This document shows, piece after piece, positions 1-7,571 of a DNA stretch of 7,571 bases. A program made the position numbers and the translations under genes. The DNA is from a virus (taxonomy: Duplodnaviria > Heunggongvirae > Uroviricota > Caudoviricetes): positions 1 to 7,571 of the IMG/VR virus record IMGVR_UViG_2529293138_000004; one strand, 5' to 3'. Position 1 is the first letter of the stretch. Each line of letters starts with the position of its first letter. A model generated the notes under the pieces. The model was not told the origin of the DNA. It ran no database searches and saw nothing but the letters and a program-made list of their open reading frames with translations.

Positions 1-1230
1 ATGAGCAGAGCACTTAACAAACTGAGTGATACACAGCTAAGGAAAATCAACGGCACACCCGCCCAAAAAACAGCCTTTCTTAATGACGGTGGAAACCTGA
101 GCGTCAGGCATTCAACCAGCGGCCTTTTAACCTGGTATTTCACTTACAGGGCCGGAACGGGAAGGGGGGCACCACCGGAACGCATTAAGCTGGGAAATTA
201 TCCTGATCTGAGCCTGAAATCAGCCAGGGAAAAAGCCGCCCAGTGTCGCGCATGGCTGGCTGAGGGGAAAAATCCACGTCATGAGATGAATTACACCGTA
301 CAGGAAGCGTTAAAGCCGGTAACGGTTGGCGATGCGCTCACCTACTGGCTTGAGTCGTACGCAAAGGAAAACCGCGTGGATTATGCCGCCCTGAAAAAGC
401 GCCTTAATAATCACGTAATACAGCACATTGGTGCTATGCCGCTGGATAAATGCGAGCTACGGCACTGGCTGGCCTGTTTTGACCAGGTGGCAAAGCGAAC
501 GCCTGTTACTGCCGGATTCTTGCTACAGACGTGCAAACAGGCGCTTAAGTTCTGCCGGAGGCGGCGCTATGCAATCAGCAACGTTCTTGATGATATGAGT
601 GTGGCGGACGTTGGGAAAAAACCGGATATAAGCGAGCGTGTCTTAAGCACCAAAGAACTGGGCGAATTATTGCAGGCTCTGGACAAAAAAATATTCTCCC
701 CCTACTACATCGCGTTAATCCGCCTCCTGATTGTTTTCGGATGCCGGACGGTAGAACTGAGGTTATCGGAGATCAGCGAGTGGGATTTTACCGAAATGCT
801 CTGGACCGTGCCGAAAGAACACAGCAAAACGAAGGTGGCAATATTCCGGCCCATACCGGAAGCAATACTGCCGTTCGTCACGCAGCTGGTGGAGCAGAAC
901 AGGCACACGGGCTTATTGCTGGGGGAAGTGAAACAGGAAACAAGCGTGTCGCAGTACGGCAGATTAGCGCACAGGAGGCTAAAACACCCTCACTGGTCAC
1001 TGCATGACATCCGGCGCACCTTTACAACGATGCTGAACGATTTAGGCGTGGATCCTCACGTCGTGGAGCAGCTTACAGGTCATCAGATGCCAGGGATGCA
1101 ACGAGTCTATAACCATTCCCGTTATCTGGATGCGAAACGTGACGCGCTGGATATGTGGACGGAGCGGTTAGGGATACTGGCGGGAACACATGAAAACGTA
1201 ACTACCTTGCCAATAGCCAGAGAAATATAA
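1..1230 (+). CDS. int: Tyrosine recombinase / phage integrase, P4-like family (409 aa)
   Basis: ORF 1-1230. N-terminal arm-type DNA-binding region (LSDTQLR..DGGNL..WYFTYR..KLGNYPDLSLKSAREKA), catalytic box I Arg (FGCRTVEL), HDIRRTF (H-x-x-R) and C-terminal Tyr (RVYNHSRYLD). The window starts exactly at the ATG, so the true 5' end and the attachment site upstream cannot be verified. Confidence 0.9.
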   Translation: MSRALNKLSDTQLRKINGTPAQKTAFLNDGGNLSVRHSTSGLLTWYFTYRAGTGRGAPPERIKLGNYPDLSLKSAREKAAQCRAWLAEGKNPRHEMNYTVQEALKPVTVGDALTYWLESYAKENRVDYAALKKRLNNHVIQHIGAMPLDKCELRHWLACFDQVAKRTPVTAGFLLQTCKQALKFCRRRRYAISNVLDDMSVADVGKKPDISERVLSTKELGELLQALDKKIFSPYYIALIRLLIVFGCRTVELRLSEISEWDFTEMLWTVPKEHSKTKVAIFRPIPEAILPFVTQLVEQNRHTGLLLGEVKQETSVSQYGRLAHRRLKHPHWSLHDIRRTFTTMLNDLGVDPHVVEQLTGHQMPGMQRVYNHSRYLDAKRDALDMWTERLGILAGTHENVTTLPIAREI

Positions 1231-1590
1231 TTTTTTTTGCGATTTTTCAGGATGCGGACAACGTGAAACAACTAGACACAACGACGAACAACAAGGAACA
1301 AAATGGAACAACGGGTTAAAAATTAGCCATCGTGATAACCATTTGATTTTTATAGGTGTACTGTTTTTTTATACACTGGCGAATCACTCTTAAAAATATG
1401 TAAAAAAGGCGTAAAAGTAAAATTTTATGCCTTTGCATCATAATGAATTAAAAGAGTTTTTATTCTCATTCCCCCTGCTTCTGTAAAACGACCTCCGCCA
1501 GTGTTTGCCATTCCACAAACACCCTGACACAATCAGACACAACCCAATAATCCACCCAATGACTCTTTAATAAACAACAAAGGGGGAATT
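1231..1590 (+). promoter_or_regulatory. AT-rich int-alpA intergenic region with phased A/C-rich direct repeats; presumed alpA promoter/operator region
   Basis: GGAACAA at 1295-1301 and 1305-1311; GACACAA at 1275-1281, 1526-1532 and 1536-1542 (two pairs phased at 10 bp); AT-rich stretch 1380-1460 with -10-like hexamers. No promoter position could be fixed confidently. Confidence 0.3.
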
Positions 1591-1779
1591 GTGTTAAGCA
1601 CAGATCGCTTTATACGTGAAAAAGAATGTCAGCAACTTACAGGCCTGAGCCGCTCATGTCGGTACCGCCTGGAAAAAGCCGGACAATTTCCATCACGGCG
1701 TAAGCTCGGCGGTCGTTCCGTTGGCTGGTCTTTATCCGAAGTTCTGGCATGGAAGGACAGCTGCGAGGCAGTTCACTAA
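1591..1779 (+). CDS. alpA: AlpA/Vis-family prophage transcriptional regulator (62 aa, GTG start)
   Basis: GTG at 1591 preceded by AGGGGGAA Shine-Dalgarno (1581-1588). Helix-turn-helix signature LTGLSRSCRYRLEKAGQFP..KLGGRSVGWSLSEVLAW is typical of AlpA-type regulators found next to P4-like integrases. Confidence 0.85.
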   Translation: MLSTDRFIREKECQQLTGLSRSCRYRLEKAGQFPSRRKLGGRSVGWSLSEVLAWKDSCEAVH

Positions 1780-1785
1780 TCAGGC

Positions 1786-1804
1786 TGGCGGCACACAGCC
1801 GCCA
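1786..1804 (+). other. GC-rich hairpin (7-bp stem TGGCGGC/GCCGCCA, 5-nt loop) just after alpA; no U-tract
   Basis: Perfect inverted repeat 1786-1792 / 1798-1804; the following sequence is not T-rich, so it is not a canonical intrinsic terminator. Confidence 0.3.
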
Positions 1805-1831
1805 CCCATCCACTAATACAGAGATCTAACC

Positions 1832-2131
1832 ATGAATACTGGATATTCTCCCGAACAAGGGCGGGGCTTCGTTCGTCCTGAAAAACAGAATCTGCAAAAT
1901 TTTGCCGAAATTATTCCGGTTATTTCCGGCCTTACTGGCGGGAGTGAAACCAATATTGTTAACGACAGAGCGTTGCAGATGTTTGATGATAAAAAGGGAG
2001 TAAATTTAACTTACACCCCTGACGGCAATCAGAATATGAGCATTATCTCTGAGTCAGGTTTCTACAAACTAATAAAAACAAAAAGCGCCCCGTTGCCGGA
2101 GCGCCTTTGTGAACAATTAACCTGCTGCACA
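1832..2131 (+). pseudogene. BRO-N domain-like ORF (antirepressor-associated N-terminal domain); no in-frame stop until 3232, likely frameshifted or degraded
   Basis: Residues ~20-95 (NIVNDRALQMFDDKKGVNL..GNQNMSIISESGFYKLIKTKSAPLPERL) match the BRO-N pattern (..LDDDEKG....MTVINESGLYSLILRSRKPEAKKF..). Downstream the same frame becomes Cys/Ser-rich low-quality sequence antisense to a better small gene. An A8 tract at 2201-2208 lies inside the ORF; removing one A would terminate at TGA 2232-2234. Confidence 0.4.
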
Positions 2132-2319
2132 AAAAATAAATATGAGCAGTGGGATTATATCATCCAGGTGACGAAGCGCCACAATTGCCGGATAACAGGC
2201 AAAAAAAAGGCGACCGCAAAATGGTCGCCAGTGAGAACAAAGGAAATCAAACGCGTCACCAACAATGCCACATTTGCGGCTGGTGGGCAATGTGATCAGT
2301 GTGCTGGCTTGCTGGTGGG

Positions 2320-2499
2320 CTATTCCTGTTCTTTGGCCTTGCGACGCTGGCGGCGTTTGATCTCGCCTTTTGCGGCAGTAACTAAAAAACCAGCGGTACT
2401 TTCGCCAGGTTCTTTAAGTTGCTCAATATCATCCATTACTTCATGTGGGATTCTGACAGTTGTCATTTGTGATTTTGCGTTCTTTGCACCAGTTGCCAT
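2320..2499 (-). CDS. Small ribbon-helix-helix (Arc/CopG-like) putative DNA-binding protein, 59 aa
   Basis: Minus-strand ATG (complement of 2497-2499) preceded by AGGAG at 8-nt spacing; product MATGAKNAKSQMTTVRIPHEVMDDIEQLKEPGESTAGFLVTAAKGEIKRRQRRKAKEQE has an RHH-like beta-strand (TVRIP) followed by two helices. The longer track ORF (to 2667) adds a non-protein-like extension. Confidence 0.5.
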   Translation of the reverse strand: MATGAKNAKSQMTTVRIPHEVMDDIEQLKEPGESTAGFLVTAAKGEIKRRQRRKAKEQE

Positions 2500-2566
2500 T
2501 TCTGGATCTCCTAAAAATTGGTGTATGCCAGTATACGCAAAAAAAATGATAAAAAAAGGCTTGAAG

Positions 2567-2611
2567 TGTATTTCACCAGTGAGTAAATTAAAAAGCAAAG
2601 GTGAAATACAC
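2567..2611. promoter_or_regulatory. Perfect 12-bp inverted repeat GTGTATTTCACC / GGTGAAATACAC with 21-bp spacer; candidate operator upstream of the RHH gene
   Basis: Arms at 2567-2578 and 2600-2611; a third GTGTAT half-site at 2521-2526; a -10-like TATACT on the minus strand (complement of 2527-2532) between the repeat and the RHH start. Confidence 0.4.
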
Positions 2612-2764
2612 CTAAAAGAGCAACGCCCCGCAGTGCTCGCAACACATGCAGGGCGTCTAACCACCAACGATAGAAAGAGTATCGAGGTAGCTATGAGAAA
2701 TCATACCACACACCCGCAAGGGCGGGACTCGCACAACCTGAATAAAGCGGGTATGAAAAACCTG

Positions 2765-2794
2765 TTGATCGCCACTGCCAGCCAGGGCTATGAT
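2765..2794 (+). promoter_or_regulatory. Candidate sigma70 promoter (TTGATC-N18-TATGAT) facing the icd-like region
   Basis: -35-like TTGATC 2765-2770, 18-nt spacer, -10-like TATGAT 2789-2794. Sequence match only. Confidence 0.3.
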
Positions 2795-2856
2795 TCATGT
2801 GCACCTCATAAAACGGGTGCCGGGATTACCACCCCGCTGATGTCCAGGGCGATACA

Positions 2857-2878
2857 GACGCCGCACGCGTCTTTTTTT
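2857..2878 (+). terminator. Intrinsic terminator-like hairpin (GACGC-cgcac-GCGTC) followed by T7
   Basis: Stem 2857-2861 / 2867-2871, then TTTTTTT 2872-2878. It sits in the leader between the candidate promoter and the structured RNA/icd region. Confidence 0.5.
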
Positions 2879-2907
2879 GTATCGGCGCACACGCACACCT
2901 TAACAAT

Positions 2908-2987
2908 GGTGGGCTGTACGGGGCCGACTTCGGTCGGGCTGGTCACCTTGGACGCCAGTTGTGGTAACCCTGTACAGTCCACCGCCA
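2908..2987 (+). ncRNA. Candidate tRNA-like structured RNA (P1 c4 / P4 CI antisense-RNA-like) immediately upstream of the first Icd-like ORF
   Basis: 12-bp closing stem 2908-2919 (GGTGGGCTGTAC) with 2972-2983 (GTACAGTCCACC, one G-U) followed by GCCA (2984-2987), enclosing a cUUCGg tetraloop hairpin (2924-2937) and a second hairpin (2941-2969). Structure is by eye, not computed. Confidence 0.3.
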
Positions 2988-3043
2988 GCGAGCTTACCAC
3001 CTCCGGCGGTGGGGATATCCCAACGTCTAAGGAGGCTGCCAAC

Positions 3044-3232
3044 ATGGCTACTACGCCTACCCTTATACATTCTCAAACTGCCTTTATCTGGCGCTTTATC
3101 ATCTTTGGCGCGTCAGAATCCCAAATCATCCACGTCACCGCCTGGACAGAACGCGAAGCGCGTAACCATTGCCCGTCCGGTTGTGTCGCTGTATTCGCCG
3201 CCCGTATTCGTCAGGGGTCACATCATGCTTAA
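3044..3232 (+). CDS. Icd-like small protein (host cell-division-inhibitor Icd / Ash-family-like), copy A, 62 aa
   Basis: ATG 3044 preceded by AAGGAGG (3029-3035). Product MATTPTLIHSQTAFIWRF...TEREARNH...VFAARIRQGSHHA, with the W-R-F ... TERE ... FAARIR pattern recalled for Icd-like proteins of P4-type elements. A longer in-frame annotation (from ATG 2906) is possible, but the strong internal SD favours the short form. Confidence 0.65.
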   Translation: MATTPTLIHSQTAFIWRFIIFGASESQIIHVTAWTEREARNHCPSGCVAVFAARIRQGSHHA

Positions 3233-3518
3233 AAACCGCTTGCAAAAAATTATCACGGGGCTGTATGCTTCCCCCGTCGCCCACATGGCGACCGGGTTTG
3301 ACAGCCTGAATAACATAGCGGACAGCCGCTTATATTCCGATATGCGGTTTTTTTGTGTCCGTAAACCTACCCATACCCGCATTATGGCGGGGCGTAACGG
3401 GGGAGCCTTTGCGCTCGCTGGTTTCTATGTTGCCAGTCTGTCAACCCTGTTACGTCTCGCCACCATGTTTGACAGCGTAGTAGCGAGACTCCTTACATCA
3501 AACATAGGAGCCTTTCAC

Positions 3519-3689
3519 ATGGCTGTATCCGCACGCCCTTACTTTGTCTGGCGCTTTATGCAGTGCCAGGAAAAACAAACCTCACTCTTTACCGTCACGG
3601 CAACAACAGAACGCGAAGCCCGCGCCCAGTTGCCGTACGCCCATCTGATTTTCGCCGCCCGTATTCGTCAGGAGGTGTGCCATGATTAA
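3519..3689 (+). CDS. Icd-like small protein, copy B (paralog of 3044-3232), 56 aa
   Basis: ATG 3519 preceded by AGGAG (3506-3510). Product MAVSARPYFVWRF...TEREARAQ...IFAARIRQEVCHD. Exact 22-bp repeat TTCGCCGCCCGTATTCGTCAGG at 3194-3215 and 3651-3672, and ACAGAACGCGAAGC shared with copy A. An in-frame upstream ATG at 3225 gives an alternative 154-aa form. Confidence 0.65.
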   Translation: MAVSARPYFVWRFMQCQEKQTSLFTVTATTEREARAQLPYAHLIFAARIRQEVCHD

Positions 3690-4038
3690 CCTGTCACTTA
3701 TCGACCTTAACCGCATCCAGTTTCGTGAGAAATTTACCTGGCAGCTACTGGTCAATGTAGAGAATGGACGCGTGGTAAGTAATTATCACCTGCCGGATGG
3801 TGCAATTGCCGGAAGCGTTGAAGCATTGCTGGAGCTGGCAGAACGTGCGCGACTGATTAAGCCGTTAACGTGCCATCACGATGATGATCTGCATTTTACC
3901 GGACGTATGATGAGCAATTATGAAAACGGCGTTGAAGCATCCCGCGAACGTCTGCATGATGATTACTGTTTCGGCACATTGCCGGAATTTATCGAATTGC
4001 TGACCAGTTGCGGTTATCAGGTCATTCAGGGGGGGTAA
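3682..4038 (+). CDS. Hypothetical protein, 118 aa
   Basis: ATG 3682 overlaps the icdB stop (ATGATTAA) and is preceded by AGGAGG (3671-3675), indicating translational coupling. Position after c4/icd matches the ant slot of P1 immI, but no motif was recognised. Confidence 0.75.
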   Translation: MINLSLIDLNRIQFREKFTWQLLVNVENGRVVSNYHLPDGAIAGSVEALLELAERARLIKPLTCHHDDDLHFTGRMMSNYENGVEASRERLHDDYCFGTLPEFIELLTSCGYQVIQGG

Positions 4039-4040
4039 AC

Positions 4041-4292
4041 ATGCGTGATGATCGTTTTAATTCCCTGAAACAGGAATTTTCCGGCGTGTCTTATGATGCG
4101 GGTGATGCGCTTTTATCAATATCTGAAATTATGCGGGTGGCTTTTTTCTTTCTTTGCACTGATGAGCACAGGGATACAGGACTAAATATTCTTGATATCG
4201 CCTCTGATTATGCTGATTACGTGGCTGAATTTAATTTAAGAGAAAAACAGTTATTACGCGAACAGAATAAAACGCCTTCCACCGGAGAATAA
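4041..4292 (+). CDS. Hypothetical protein, 83 aa
   Basis: ATG 4041 two nt after the upstream stop, preceded by a G-rich SD (4028-4035). The track's longer form starts at TTG 4008 inside the upstream gene and is less likely. Confidence 0.6.
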   Translation: MRDDRFNSLKQEFSGVSYDAGDALLSISEIMRVAFFFLCTDEHRDTGLNILDIASDYADYVAEFNLREKQLLREQNKTPSTGE

Positions 4293-4297
4293 AAATA

Positions 4298-4585
4298 ATG
4301 AAACTTAAATATTCTGGCTTAACTGCCAGCGGCACCGCTCGGCCTGAAATCCGTAACGGCGATATTTACCGCGATAAATATGGCGGCATGGTAACGATTA
4401 AAGGCGTGGCAGAACGGCGCATCACCTACCGCCGTGAAGGTTACGAATATGATTGCGTGATGCCTGTTTATCAATTCCGGCGTGATTTCACGCTGGTAGG
4501 CCATCGTAAAGCCGTTAATCAGAAACGTGCAACAGGTTATATCCGCAAAATCCGTGAAATGCTGGTCGCAGGGGGTAAGAAATGA
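4298..4585 (+). CDS. Hypothetical small protein, 95 aa (tentatively DUF4222-like: YRD and GxV motifs)
   Basis: ATG 4298 with GGAGA upstream; contains IYRDKYGGMVTIKGV. The family assignment is from memory and is low-certainty. Confidence 0.7.
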   Translation: MKLKYSGLTASGTARPEIRNGDIYRDKYGGMVTIKGVAERRITYRREGYEYDCVMPVYQFRRDFTLVGHRKAVNQKRATGYIRKIREMLVAGGKK

Positions 4586-5979
4586 AACTGGCACCGAACG
4601 TAAAACGATTACCGAAAGATAAATACACCGATGCGATTATTTTTGCGGGTATTGATGCTCACTCATTCGCAGAGCATTACATCATTGCACAGGCCAAAAA
4701 AGCAGGCGATCCAGTCCCTCCCGTTTATCTGGGGCGTTATCAGTTAAGCGAACTGGATAACCTCCAGATTGTTGATGATGGGCGATACAGGGCGACGGTG
4801 ATACGCGCCGGAAATATTGAAGAGCCGCAGCTGTTAACCATCGCCACGAAACTGGCGATCGCCGGAGTCCAGGAGGCGCGGCTACTTTCTGAAAATTTCG
4901 AATTGCTGGAGGAATGGAGCGACCAGCTTCCACGGCTTAGGGAGACATGGGAACGCGGGGAAAGCCTGAGCAACCAGCGAAAAACCACGCTACCAATGAG
5001 CGTGGGATCTGCCGGATACGACACACAACTTGATTACGTGGTTAAGGGAATTATTCCGGCTGTATCGCTTTGCAGCATATACGGGGCGAGCGGTTCCTAT
5101 AAATCATTCCTTGCCGGATCGTGGGCGTGTCACGTTTCCACTGGCCGCCAGTGGGGATGCCGCAGGGTGGCGCATGGCGCTGTTCTCTATGTGGTTGGTG
5201 AAGGCGGTATCGGCGTTCCTCGTCGTGTAAAAGCCTGGGAGGTTGTGCACGGTGAGCAGGTGAAAAATCTGTATCTGGTAAACCGTCCCATCTTTCCGGC
5301 TGCCCCGCTTGATGTTGATGAAATGGTTATCGCTGCCCGTCAGGTGGAACGGGAAACGGGTAAACCTGTACGCATGATTATTCTGGATACGCTGGCGCGG
5401 TGCTTTGGTGGCAATGATGAAAATGATTCCCGTGATATGGGGGCGTTTATCCGTGGGTGTGACGAACTGAAACGACGCACAGGGGCCACGGTGCTGGTGG
5501 TTCACCATTCCGGCAAGGATGAAACAAAGGGAGCGCGTGGTTCCAGTGCATTTCGTGCTTCGCTGGATGCTGAATACCGGATACGCAGGGAGGACGCAGG
5601 AAGCGAAGCCCTGGTTATCTCATGCACCAAAATGAAGGATGCGGAGGAACTCAAAGAAGCCGCATATGACTTACGCGTGGTGGAGCTTTTTACCGACGCT
5701 GACGGGGAGTTAATCACGTCGCTGGTGGTGGTGGATAAGCCGCGCCCTCCCGTTGAACTGGAGCGCATCGAGGAGGCTGGCAACAAGACGGAAAACCATA
5801 CCGCGCTATGGGGATGCATACGTTCACGCACACAGAACGGCGACAAGTGCACGATCCCGCTGTTACGTGATGACATGAAAAAACTGGGGTACGAAATGAA
5901 AAACTTCCGGCGCTGGCTGTACAAGCTGGAAAAAGACAGGGTTATTCGTATCGATGGGGATGATGTAGCGCCGCTATAA
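4582..5979 (+). CDS. RecA-fold replicative ATPase/helicase-like protein (AAA_25 / RepA-like), 465 aa
   Basis: ATG 4582 overlaps the upstream stop (ATGA). P-loop region IYGASGSYKSFLAG, Walker B/sensor region MIILDTLARCFGGNDENDSRDMGAFIRGCDELKRRTGATVLVVHHSGKD, matching the pattern of AAA_25 family replication helicases. N-terminal ~150 aa unassigned; no primase domain evident. Confidence 0.85.
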   Translation: MKLAPNVKRLPKDKYTDAIIFAGIDAHSFAEHYIIAQAKKAGDPVPPVYLGRYQLSELDNLQIVDDGRYRATVIRAGNIEEPQLLTIATKLAIAGVQEARLLSENFELLEEWSDQLPRLRETWERGESLSNQRKTTLPMSVGSAGYDTQLDYVVKGIIPAVSLCSIYGASGSYKSFLAGSWACHVSTGRQWGCRRVAHGAVLYVVGEGGIGVPRRVKAWEVVHGEQVKNLYLVNRPIFPAAPLDVDEMVIAARQVERETGKPVRMIILDTLARCFGGNDENDSRDMGAFIRGCDELKRRTGATVLVVHHSGKDETKGARGSSAFRASLDAEYRIRREDAGSEALVISCTKMKDAEELKEAAYDLRVVELFTDADGELITSLVVVDKPRPPVELERIEEAGNKTENHTALWGCIRSRTQNGDKCTIPLLRDDMKKLGYEMKNFRRWLYKLEKDRVIRIDGDDVAPL

Positions 5980-6156
5980 AGTGAGGTGCAAAAGCGAGGT
6001 GTATAGAAGGAGGGCCAAAATTAGACCGCTACCCCTCACTTTTCGGCCTGTATACATCCTCAAAAGTGAGGGGCAAAAAAATACTTATGAAACACACACA
6101 TAGAAAAAGCGAAAATCTCAAGCGAGACGGAGCCAGACACTTTAAAAAGTGAGGCG
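5978..6156. repeat. Iteron array AAAG(T/C)GAGG(T/G)G (direct and inverted copies) with an AT-rich stretch; candidate replication origin
   Basis: Copies at 5978-5988, 5991-6001, 6062-6073, 6144-6156, inverted copy 6032-6043 (forming a 12-bp inverted repeat with 6062-6073), and degenerate copies at 6104-6115 and 6119-6130. Lies directly downstream of the replication ATPase gene. Confidence 0.5.
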
Positions 6157-6178
6157 AAAAACTGAGAGTTTGCGAGAA

Positions 6179-6430
6179 ATGAACAAAATGCGTAGAGACA
6201 GAACAGAGCCAAAATATAAAGCGTTAGACATGACAGAGCACGCTTTAAAGGTGGCAATCAGAACGATAGACCGCCACGCGGGGGAAGGATACGCGAAGGA
6301 ACATCCCGACATGATAAGCGCATTCATGACCACAGCAGCGGCAAACTTTGCCACGCTGACAGAACGGGAGATTGCCGAAGCGGAACAGGTAACAACCATC
6401 AACGTTAAAACCGGAGAGCAGACAGCATGA
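6179..6430 (+). CDS. Hypothetical protein (~83 aa; start ambiguous among GTG 6149, ATG 6179, 6188, 6230)
   Basis: ORF ends with a TGA overlapping the ATG of the SSB gene (ATGA at 6427-6430), suggesting coupling; no recognisable motif and weak SD candidates. Confidence 0.5.
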   Translation: MNKMRRDRTEPKYKALDMTEHALKVAIRTIDRHAGEGYAKEHPDMISAFMTTAAANFATLTEREIAEAEQVTTINVKTGEQTA

Positions 6431-6933
6431 CAGCACAGATAGCGGCTTACGGACGGCTGGTGGCTGACCCGCAGTTAAAGACCACCAGCAAGGGTACACA
6501 AATGACGATGGCGAGTATGGCGGTCCCCCTTCCGTGCAGCCAGGCAGATGACGGAGCGGCGACGATGTGGTTATCCGTCATGGCGTTTGGCAGACAGGCC
6601 GACGCACTGGCAAAACACCACAAAGGCGAACTGGTGAGCGTGGCGGGTAACATGCAGGTAAGTCAGTGGACAGGCCAGAACGGCGAAACGCGGCAGGGCT
6701 GGCAGGTTATCGCAGACAGCATAATCAGTGCGAGAACGGCGCGACCTGGCGGCAAAAAAGGCCAGCAGGGGCAGGCTACTGATGCACTGAACAGGGCAAA
6801 ACAACAGGCGGGTAACGATGATCCGTACGGGATAACATACCGTTTTAAGCAACGAGTAACAGAAGCCGGAGAAGTCCGGCTTTTTTATGCCCCAAAAAAA
6901 GCCCGGAGGGTCTTATCGGGCTTTTGCATATGA
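6427..6933 (+). CDS. ssb: Single-stranded DNA-binding protein (SSB-like OB fold), 168 aa with atypical C-terminus
   Basis: GGAGAG SD at 6414-6419. The pattern IAAYGRLVADPQLKTT..MWLSVMAFGRQADALAKHHKGELVSVAGNMQVSQWTGQNGETRQGWQVIADSI parallels E. coli SSB ([66 protein letters not shown]). The C-terminal ~25 codons read through two terminator-like hairpins. Confidence 0.8.
   Translation: MTAQIAAYGRLVADPQLKTTSKGTQMTMASMAVPLPCSQADDGAATMWLSVMAFGRQADALAKHHKGELVSVAGNMQVSQWTGQNGETRQGWQVIADSIISARTARPGGKKGQQGQATDALNRAKQQAGNDDPYGITYRFKQRVTEAGEVRLFYAPKKARRVLSGFCI
6865..6886 (+). terminator. Intrinsic terminator (GCCGGA-gaag-TCCGGC followed by T6)
   Basis: Stem 6865-6870 / 6875-6880, loop 6871-6874, T-tract 6881-6886; located inside the 3' end of the SSB ORF as currently delimited. 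Confidence 0.6.
6898..6924. terminator. Second hairpin (AAAGCCCG...CGGGCTTT) flanked by an A-tract and a T-tract; possible bidirectional terminator
   Basis: Stem 6898-6905 / 6917-6924 with an 11-nt loop; A7 upstream would provide a U-tract for minus-strand transcripts. Confidence 0.35.
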
Positions 6934-7003
6934 GGTTTTTTTGGTGCGCTGACACACATGATCGGGATAATAATTTCATAATTTGCAACATAACTCAATA
7001 TTA

Positions 7004-7052
7004 TTGCACAAAATGCAATCATGATTATAATCATGACTGGATGAACATCCAG
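7004..7052 (+). promoter_or_regulatory. Consensus-like sigma70 promoter (TTGCAC-N16-TATAAT) with overlapping palindromic operators
   Basis: -35 at 7004-7009; perfect -10 TATAAT at 7026-7031 sitting at the centre of a perfect 18-bp palindrome TCATGATTATAATCATGA (7019-7036); a second inverted repeat CTGGATG-aa-CATCCAG at 7037-7052 around the expected transcription start. Confidence 0.5.
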
Positions 7053-7087
7053 TTATGATTTTTTAAGTCGAAGAGGAATTTCTTACT

Positions 7088-7270
7088 ATGGCTGAAGAGA
7101 AAAAAGGCGGTGTTTCGGTGTACATAAGCTCCGACATCGTGGAGGCGCTCAAGGAACGCCACCAGCAGAACGTAAAGCAGGCATTGCGGCAGGACTTGAT
7201 CCACTGGCGATGGTTGAGCCGTCAACAGGCTGGCAGGTGCGCGCCTATTTACGTGCGGCGCTGGGCATGA
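7088..7270 (+). CDS. Small protein upstream of the capsid gene (60 aa as an intact ORF; possible frameshifted ~68-aa product ending at 7293)
   Basis: ATG 7088 with GAGG upstream. The N-terminal half uses preferred codons in this frame; from about 7170 the other forward frame (ending TAA 7291-7293, abutting the capsid ATG) uses preferred codons (AGIAAGLDPLAMVEPSTGWQVRAYLRAALGMNQTHGGE), while the original frame turns Arg/Trp-rich. Confidence 0.4.
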   Translation: MAEEKKGGVSVYISSDIVEALKERHQQNVKQALRQDLIHWRWLSRQQAGRCAPIYVRRWA

Positions 7271-7293
7271 ATCAGACTCATGGGGGTGAATAA

Positions 7294-7571
7294 TGGCAGG
7301 CAAAGCAACGGCACTTACCACTAATCAGCTTTTCACGTACATGAATCGCGGGGATATTGCGGAATTTAAATTCAGTCCGCTGTTTACCACGCTGTTTTTC
7401 CCGAACGTGGCGACATTCAGCACCCAAAACATCATGCTGGATACCCTGGACATTGAAGAAGTCACTATGTCGGCGTTTTGTTCGCCTATGGTTGGCAGCC
7501 AGGTACAGCGCGATAAAGGGTACGAAACCAGCACAATCAAACCTGGCTACATGAAGCCAAAGCACGAAATC
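7294..7571 (+). CDS. Major capsid protein, lambda gpE family (N-terminal 92 codons; truncated by window end)
   Basis: ATG 7294 preceded by GGGGG (7282-7286). Translation MAGKATALTTNQLFTYMNRGDIAEFKFSPLFTTLFFPNVATFSTQNIMLDTLDIEEVTMSAFCSPMVGSQVQRDKGYETSTIKPGYMKPKHEI parallels lambda E (..FKFDPLFLRLFF..VNMALYVSPIVSGEVIRSRGGSTSEFTPGYVKPKHEV). Not in the supplied ORF track because it has no stop within the window. Confidence 0.85.

Follow-up and report, generated by a model that had tools for sequence, protein, structure and literature searches.

A likely replication origin directly downstream of a RecA-fold Rep gene in a probable Escherichia coli phage-inducible chromosomal island, with iterons that track a predicted winged helix of Rep

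The stretch of DNA considered here (IMG/VR record IMGVR_UViG_2529293138_000004, Caudoviricetes, positions 1 to 7,571; the whole of it is called the window) is very probably part of a Gram-negative phage-inducible chromosomal island (PICI) of the E. coli type, to judge from its genes. An array of short repeats at 5978-6177, immediately downstream of its rep gene, is in all likelihood the replication origin of the island, and the repeats (iterons) would be read by a predicted winged helix of the RecA-fold Rep protein encoded just upstream. The layout is the one already published for the PICI family, to which the rep-ori allele of the window adds. What appears to be new, on comparison of about 100 related loci that retain this layout, is that the iteron sequence changes block-wise and is linked almost perfectly to one residue of Rep's own winged helix. 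A literature search on the iteron strings, and on PICI together with DUF4222 (the family of a neighbouring gene), found nothing relevant.

The gap between the rep stop codon (5977-5979) and the next ATG (6179) is 199 bp long and is filled by copies of one short motif. The features of the array, with the gene upstream, are as follows (window positions and strand).

4582-5979, + strand: rep, encoding a 465-amino acid (aa) RepA-family protein (Pfam AAA_25, E=3e-42; relatives are annotated 'helicase RepA family protein')
5779-5976, + strand: predicted winged-helix domain, Rep residues ~400-465 (AlphaFold2, Foldseek)
5978-5986, + strand: iteron 1, AAAGTGAGG, overlapping the rep stop codon
5991-5999, + strand: iteron 2, AAAGCGAGG (one mismatch), 13 bp after iteron 1
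6032-6043, - strand: inverted iteron, CCCCTCACTTTT on the + strand, left arm of a perfect 12-bp inverted repeat
6049-6056, no strand: conserved element TGTATACA, lying after the inverted iteron and before the next direct one (alignment with relatives)
6062-6073, + strand: iteron AAAAGTGAGGGG, which closes the left set and forms the right arm of the inverted repeat
6074-6119, no strand: AT-rich tract, 28% GC, predicted unwinding region (composition, duplex stability)
6120-6138, + strand: two degenerate iterons, AAGCGAGAC (6120-6128) and GAGCCAGAC (6130-6138, weak), which open the right set
6144-6154, + strand: iteron AAAAAGTGAGG, with an exact core (motif match, alignment)
6157-6177, + strand: two degenerate iterons, AAAAACTGAGAG (6157-6168) and TTGCGAGA (6170-6177) (alignment with relatives)

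Exact copies of AAAGTGAGG number four, at 5978-5986, 6063-6071 and 6146-6154 on the + strand and at 6034-6042 on the - strand. Over all 7571 bp there are seven matches with at most one mismatch, where 1.45 are expected from 200 dinucleotide-preserving shuffles, none of which (0/200) reached seven; five of the seven fall inside 177 bp. A longer consensus, AAAAGTGAGGNGNAAAA, gives five matches at up to three mismatches against 0.29 expected, all of them in 5977-6161. The AT-rich tract (46 bp, against 50% GC for the window) splits the array into two sets. An earlier interpretation made from the letters of this DNA alone (the sequence-only reading) had described a cluster of copies after an ATPase gene, a 12-bp inverted repeat and an adjacent AT-rich tract; all of this is borne out, with four exact copies and one single-mismatch copy clustered beyond what shuffling gives. 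Its array, however, ended at 6165. Alignment with relatives adds sites at 6120-6128, 6130-6138, 6157-6168 and 6170-6177, which moves the end to 6177, and a copy that it probably counted near 6005-6014 (GAAGGAGGG) is out of register with the relatives' third iteron, a position decayed in this lineage.

Seven E. coli relatives were aligned through the intergenic region (loci are cited by L numbers). By this alignment the array runs from 5978 to 6177 and holds some 10-11 positional sites in two sets: the left set, 5978-6073, includes one inverted copy and the conserved TGTATACA; the right set, 6120-6177, ends with an iteron that stops two bases short of the next ATG. The iteron core is 6-9 bp long, (A)AGTGAGG. 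Four sites of the window are perfect, four have one or two core changes (GCGAGG, GCGAGA twice, CTGAGA) and three are decayed. In relatives the sites matching 6120-6138 are good copies (GAAGTGAGAC, AAGTGGGGA), and those matching 6157-6177 read AAAAGTGAGAG or AAAAGTGGGGAG, then TAGTGGGGA or GAGTGAGGA; a second inverted copy, decayed in the window (TCGGCC), abuts the first in L003, L005, L006 and L007. The same pattern of strong and weak sites is found in L001, L002, L093, L094 and L098, and because it is common to these five it is a feature of the lineage, not private decay. The three best 16-nt copies (AAAGTGAGGNGNAAAA), at 5978, 6063 and 6146, are spaced 85 and 83 bp apart, or about eight helical turns, and would all lie on the same side of the helix.

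A scan of one genome per species supplied 80 more loci, from Enterobacterales and one Oceanospirillaceae metagenome-assembled genome (MAG); 88 related loci were analysed. Most of them have an iteron array within 260 bp after the rep stop, and those inspected in detail share one architecture. In E. coli the left set begins with two or three direct copies beside the rep stop, continues with an inverted copy or two and the element TGTATA(C/T)A, and closes with one direct copy; the AT-rich tract forms the centre, its position kept among relatives and its sequence not; the right set is five direct copies extending to the next ATG. TGTATA is present in 36/88 loci, in 33 of these 36 at +56 to +74 after the rep stop, and it occurs across all four of the iteron classes described below; four inspected loci without it have TATATA-like variants. 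This element (TGTATACA in the window) is independent of the code linking winged helix to iteron, and may be a melting point, a -10-like element or some other contact.

The sequence-only reading had suggested looking among related islands for covariation between iteron sequence and initiator. Such covariation is seen: the core switches as a block between lineages, and it tracks the C-terminal winged helix of the ATPase. Four cores are found, listed here with their distribution and with the residue at Rep position 441 among 66 Reps of clear iteron class, aligned over their last 335 residues.

GTGAGG: the window, Xenorhabdus, Rosenbergiella and the Oceanospirillaceae MAG; Asn441 in 25/25
GTGGGG: other E. 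coli islands, Pantoea, Kosakonia and Trabulsiella; His441 (with GTGGGG / GTGGGH) in 8/8
GTGGGGG: Serratia, Pectobacterium, Morganella and others; Lys441 in 23/25, the other two having His with GTGGGGGC
[GA]TGCGGC: Citrobacter, Kosakonia, Enterobacter and Phytobacter; Ser441 (with TGCGGC) in 8/8

Residue 441 heads all 335 columns, with a normalised mutual information with iteron class of 0.91 and a purity of 97%; columns 407 and 437 rank next, so that the top three all lie in the C-terminal domain. The match between residue and core is not one of simple shared ancestry, because L006, with a helicase core 99% identical to that of the window, nevertheless has H441 and GTGGGG, whereas L085, only 53% identical in the core, has N441 and GTGAGG. 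On a tree built from the helicase core, residue 441 and the iteron core change together some ten times. Within E. coli, winged-helix type is linked to iteron type in 13 of 13 loci; at the same 13 loci the two N-terminal alleles of Rep (MKLAPNV... and MKSAPNL...) each occur with either iteron type. An independent case is provided by pKp_Goe_795-4 of Klebsiella pneumoniae (L092 = CP018459.1, 16,971 bp, circular), in which a rep homologue with Ser at the position equivalent to 441 is followed by GTGCGGC iterons and CTGTATACA.

Pairing of Asn with adenine, and of Lys or His with guanine, is classical in contacts between side chains and bases. This fits direct readout, and it is proposed that residue 441 reads the fourth base of GTG-N-GG, Asn441 of the window reading the A of GTG-A-GG. 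Other candidate readers were considered and set aside. An identical DUF4222 protein (WP_000770163.1) sits beside GTGAGG origins (L001, L003) and GTGGGG origins (L006, L010). The gene for the 83-aa protein downstream of the array is 93-95% identical at the DNA level in islands that have a primase-type rep and GGTAGA iterons. As for Rep's N-terminal domain, the free assortment of its two alleles with iteron type discounts it.

Rep itself consists of an N-terminal domain (~1-130, no family match), a RecA-fold core (AAA_25, residues 147-314) and the C-terminal winged helix. The core gives weak fold matches to RadA, Rad51 and KaiC; the N-terminal 133 aa have no match in Pfam, and the Rep sequence has none in the PDB. 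The full-length model is of moderate quality (predicted local distance difference test, pLDDT, 71), and a fold search with it gives weak RecA-family matches only. The C-terminal domain is modelled better: AlphaFold2 gives residues 389-465 a pLDDT of 88, as three helices and a beta hairpin (H-H-H-beta hairpin), and the PDB matches listed by Foldseek are largely winged-helix DNA binders (ArsR/CzrA, Fur, LexA, MexR, DtxR, BlaI, ORC), with probabilities up to 0.99 and TM-scores up to 0.73. The recognition helix is the third, residues 442-451, and N441 (codon AAC, 5902-5904) stands at its N-cap. This winged helix is the predicted reader of the iterons.

Beyond these domains, the N-terminal part of Rep (window 4582-4980; L003 483-890) exists in E. 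coli as two very different alleles, and DUF927 proteins encoded on Klebsiella plasmids begin with a stretch that is 59% identical to Rep residues 1-129. In Xenorhabdus, Serratia, Pectobacterium and Morganella (L012-L030, L049-L075) the homologues are longer, ~680-730 aa, with Zn_Ribbon_Prim and Toprim_3 domains placed in front of the same AAA_25 motor and winged helix; the primase part has an EGYATA-type motif. These count as true primase-helicase-initiator fusions, and their origins share the architecture.

The rep gene and its repeats also appear to travel together. In L009 and in the PICI EcCICFT073, a non-homologous Rep of the P4 family of primases (D5_N, DUF5906 and Pox_D5 domains) occupies the place of the window's Rep between the same flanks, DUF4222 upstream and an 83-85-aa gene and ssb downstream. 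After the P4-type rep comes a gap of 290-350 bp, packed with GGTAGAGG or GGTAGA(C/T)A repeats that run in both directions. Homology between the window and these islands resumes at ~6172-6185, which is the end of the array; therefore rep and the repeats have been exchanged as one unit.

Several origins among the relatives merit description in their own right. At L008 (2480-3730, E. coli O145 RM8988-C1) an IS3-family element lies inside the origin, directly after CTGTATACAT, and cuts off the left iterons; L098 has the same Rep protein and an intact origin. L004 (1879-2085, E. coli KSC1031) has a hybrid origin, in which Asn441 and a GTGAGG left set are combined with an AT tract and part of a right set of the GTGGGG type; this suggests recombination within the origin. 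CP018459.1, deposited as a plasmid, encodes an integrase, a DNA-binding protein, the rep homologue, capsid, head-tail adaptor and terminase, together with a tape-measure gene, and looks like a capsid-forming satellite or small prophage caught as an extrachromosomal circle.

The nearest precedent is the PICI family. There the initiator gene has the origin immediately on its 3' side, where an AT-rich region stands between two sets of iterons; four Pri-Rep alleles occur among E. coli PICIs, and a rep-ori plasmid from EcCICFT073 was kept at the restrictive temperature only with rep and ori both intact (Fillol-Salom 2018, PMC6092414). The window has the same arrangement: iteron 1 overlaps the rep stop, the two sets stand on either side of 6074-6119, as they do in the relatives, and the iterons are specific to the Rep allele, the core tracking the winged helix and the primase-type islands having unrelated iterons. 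The origin layout beside an initiator gene, as the sequence-only reading had it, is thus that of the published PICI origin. EcCICFT073 shares the whole slot with the window (DUF4222, rep, the origin, an 83-85-aa gene and ssb), with two iteron sets around an AT-rich region. They differ in the protein: the EcCICFT073 Rep is of the P4/D5 type, with a superfamily 3 (SF3) helicase (D5_N, DUF5906, Pox_D5), and goes with GGTAGA(C/T)A iterons, whereas the Rep of the window is a RecA-fold AAA_25 helicase without a primase domain and goes with GTGAGG iterons. EcCI11128, a second PICI (Fillol-Salom 2018 Table S1), has a Rep of the same RepA family as the window; it is exactly the Rep of L006 (WP_000833625.1).

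A second comparison is with pathogenicity islands from Staphylococcus aureus (SaPIs; SaPI1, SaPI5 and SaPIbov1). The SaPI Rep is both initiator and helicase, and its C-terminal winged helix reads 5-6-bp iterons; the origin, with six to twelve iterons and an AT-rich centre, lies directly after rep, and a self-loading model has been put forward (Qiao 2022, PMC9371898). The window resembles this in having a helicase as initiator candidate, a C-terminal winged helix on that helicase (by prediction), an AT-rich centre and some opposed iterons. The motors differ: SaPI Reps are AAA+ proteins of the MCM/SF3 type, moving 3' to 5', whereas the window motor is RecA-fold, like superfamily 4 (SF4), and no sequence homology was seen between the window Rep and SaPI Reps. 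The iterons of the window also lie mostly in one orientation, the exceptions being one or two inverted copies, confined to the left set. By analogy, the window Rep is proposed to work like a SaPI Rep; it lies outside the SaPI Rep protein family.

Other replicons are more distant. The alpha protein of satellite P4 is an initiator that combines an SF3 helicase core with C-terminal origin binding to short repeated octamers, and it needs a second site, crr. The primase part of alpha is absent from the window allele, and in the long homologues it is represented by a Zn-ribbon and Toprim primase; the P4 comparison is drawn in part from the discussion in PMC6092414. RepA of the IncQ plasmid RSF1010, like the window Rep, is an AAA_25 protein of the 'helicase RepA family'. 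RSF1010 uses a separate protein, RepC, to bind its 20-bp iterons; its RepA lacks an origin-binding domain, and priming at ssi sites is done by RepB'. The helicase of the window, by contrast, bears its own winged helix and has iterons of 6-9 bp, and no RepC-like or RepB-like matches were found among the window's open reading frames (ORFs). Classical iteron plasmids (pPS10 RepA, F RepE, R6K pi, RK2 TrfA) likewise place initiator sites beside an AT-rich region and read them with winged helices; they have iterons of 17-22 bp, a non-helicase initiator and DnaA boxes, and depend on host DnaB/DnaC. The window differs on each of the first three points: the core measures 6-9 bp, a helicase is the candidate initiator, and neither a DnaA box (at most one mismatch), an IHF site nor GATC is present in 5950-6210. 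The phrase 'usual iteron-type origin', used by the sequence-only reading, is therefore apt in the PICI/SaPI/P4 sense, of short (6-9 bp) iterons and a helicase that is itself the initiator; it does not hold in the sense of plasmid RepA, RepE or pi.

Certain observations weigh against an origin read by the winged helix. The AT-rich tract stands at the 98th percentile of duplex instability among 45-bp windows, but is not the least stable stretch of the window. Several sites, namely site 3, the second inverted copy and 6130-6138, have degenerated or disappeared, and only 4 to 8 of the ~11 look competent. The validated PICI replicon, EcCICFT073, uses a non-homologous Pri-Rep of the SF3 type; the rep allele of the window lacks a primase domain, and none of the window's genes was recognised as a primase. 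For the winged helix, Foldseek gives weak E-values (at least 0.05), as expected because the domain has only 77 residues. Finally, the covariation could in part reflect co-inheritance, as the region coding for the winged helix is only 75-200 bp from the iterons.

Could the array be something other than a working origin? It might be a relic, the decayed origin of a defective, non-replicating island: at three or four sites where L003, L005 and L006 have good copies, the window has degenerate ones, and the insertion in L008 shows an origin interrupted outright. This seems quite improbable, given that the same site pattern is shared by L001, L002, L093, L094 and L098, all with rep intact, that segment 5600-6430 is at least 80% covered in 636 E. 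coli genome records, and that the window's own rep frame is intact and 96% identical to the closest database protein. It might instead be a set of operator sites for Rep or another island protein, controlling the 83-aa gene, ssb, the packaging operon or rep itself. The iterons of many plasmids double as autoregulatory operators; here the array stops two bases before the next start codon, and TGTATA(C/T)A might serve as a -10-like element. However, a search of 5700-6500 found no sigma-70-like promoter and no terminator, the genes form one co-directional block, the arrangement of two sets around an AT tract is that of experimentally validated PICI and SaPI origins, and the repeats, besides being swapped together with rep, are linked to the winged helix of the helicase itself. 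An operator in place of an origin is accordingly a very improbable account, and a regulatory role could coexist with origin function. Nor does the inverted repeat look like a terminator or promoter: the 5700-6500 interval has no consensus site, and what comes after the 12-bp stem on the + strand is a run of A rather than of T.

The third alternative is a packaging (pac/cos) or recombination site, for a terminase small subunit or a recombinase. PICIs need a signal for packaging, and certain pac sites consist of short repeats in an array; terS or capsid genes do lie further downstream in the relatives. But iteron type tracks the Rep winged helix, the array is swapped with rep while the downstream genes stay unchanged, and identical origins are found with different modules (terS and capsid in L006, a capsid-protease fusion in L001, and a lambda-like capsid/decoration set in EcCICFT073), which makes this reading extremely improbable.

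If the array is an origin, as preferred here, its action might be pictured as follows. Rep subunits would bind the two iteron sets through their winged helices, by analogy with SaPI Rep and P4 alpha; the AT-rich tract, or TGTATACA between the inverted and direct iterons, would then melt, and TGTATACA may be the first point to do so. Rep would load itself as a ring helicase on each side, the SSB encoded by the island would coat the single strands, and the excised island would replicate without a host initiator. As a speculation, the ~six left sites and five right sites would suit one hexamer per side. The DNA binding of the winged helix, its base contact through residue 441, the melting, the self-loading and the autonomous replication are what we infer from the repeats, their conserved positions and their linkage to Rep. 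Tentatively, and with somewhat less than even confidence, the proposal may be carried further: throughout this widespread family of initiators a single N-cap residue would set origin specificity (GTG-A-GG being read by Asn, GTG-G-GG by His, GTGGGGG by Lys and TGCGGC by Ser), and winged helix and origin would form a small, mobile recombination cassette, independent of the motor and of the N-terminal domain.

The setting of the array is that of an integrative island, as the sequence-only reading supposed. In order, and all co-directional, the window has int, alpA, an Icd-like gene, DUF4222, rep, the array, the 83-aa gene and ssb. Genes outside the array are listed below.

1-1230: int, tyrosine integrase
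1591-1779: alpA, AlpA regulator
4298-4585, + strand: DUF4222 gene (Pfam PF13973, E=3e-25); its stop overlaps the rep start (ATGA)
6179-6430, + strand: 83-aa gene (PHROG 1231, by PHROG match), directly after the array
6427-6933, + strand: ssb, single-strand DNA-binding protein gene (Pfam SSB, E=7e-16)

This order is that of EcCICFT073 and EcCI11128, both listed as Gram-negative PICIs in Fillol-Salom 2018 Table S1. In the relatives the block is a 9-12 kb island with chromosomal genes on its flanks and capsid or terS genes at its end; the window stops at 7571, before the island's right end, its full size and its att site are reached. PICIs are marked by a size of about 8-15 kb, an att site of their own and the absence of lysis and tail genes, besides int, alpA, rep and co-directional genes. 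The segment from rep to ssb has Megablast matches in 1,608 of 5,426 complete E. coli genomes, at up to 94% identity. The DUF4222 gene neighbours rep of either type, being found also upstream of the primase-type rep in L009 and EcCICFT073. ATGA overlaps occur at 4582-4585 (DUF4222/rep) and at 6427-6430 (83-aa gene/ssb), which suggests translational coupling inside the replication module. A 466-aa open frame at 1832-3232 (+) is anti-repressor-like at residues 45-84, Ash at 324-413 and Icd-like at 418-461; relatives are annotated with several small genes in its place, and it may be a fusion, or an overextended mechanical ORF call.

An iteron origin 3' of rep is an established principle, so that the finding confirms known biology rather than surprises. 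Its interest lies in what the allele adds. Genes for virulence and defence pass between enterobacteria on PICIs and related satellites, which depend for their spread on replicating once induced; an origin and its reader together define the minimal replicon, and predict which islands share or compete for an initiator. A simple switch of specificity, one residue for one base, is on offer. If the residue-441 code and the cassette are true, co-resident islands would obtain mutually orthogonal origins by this means, and the Reps described here would be an SF4-type counterpart of the self-loading SF3/MCM-type Reps, with the opposite translocation polarity and hence a different loading geometry.

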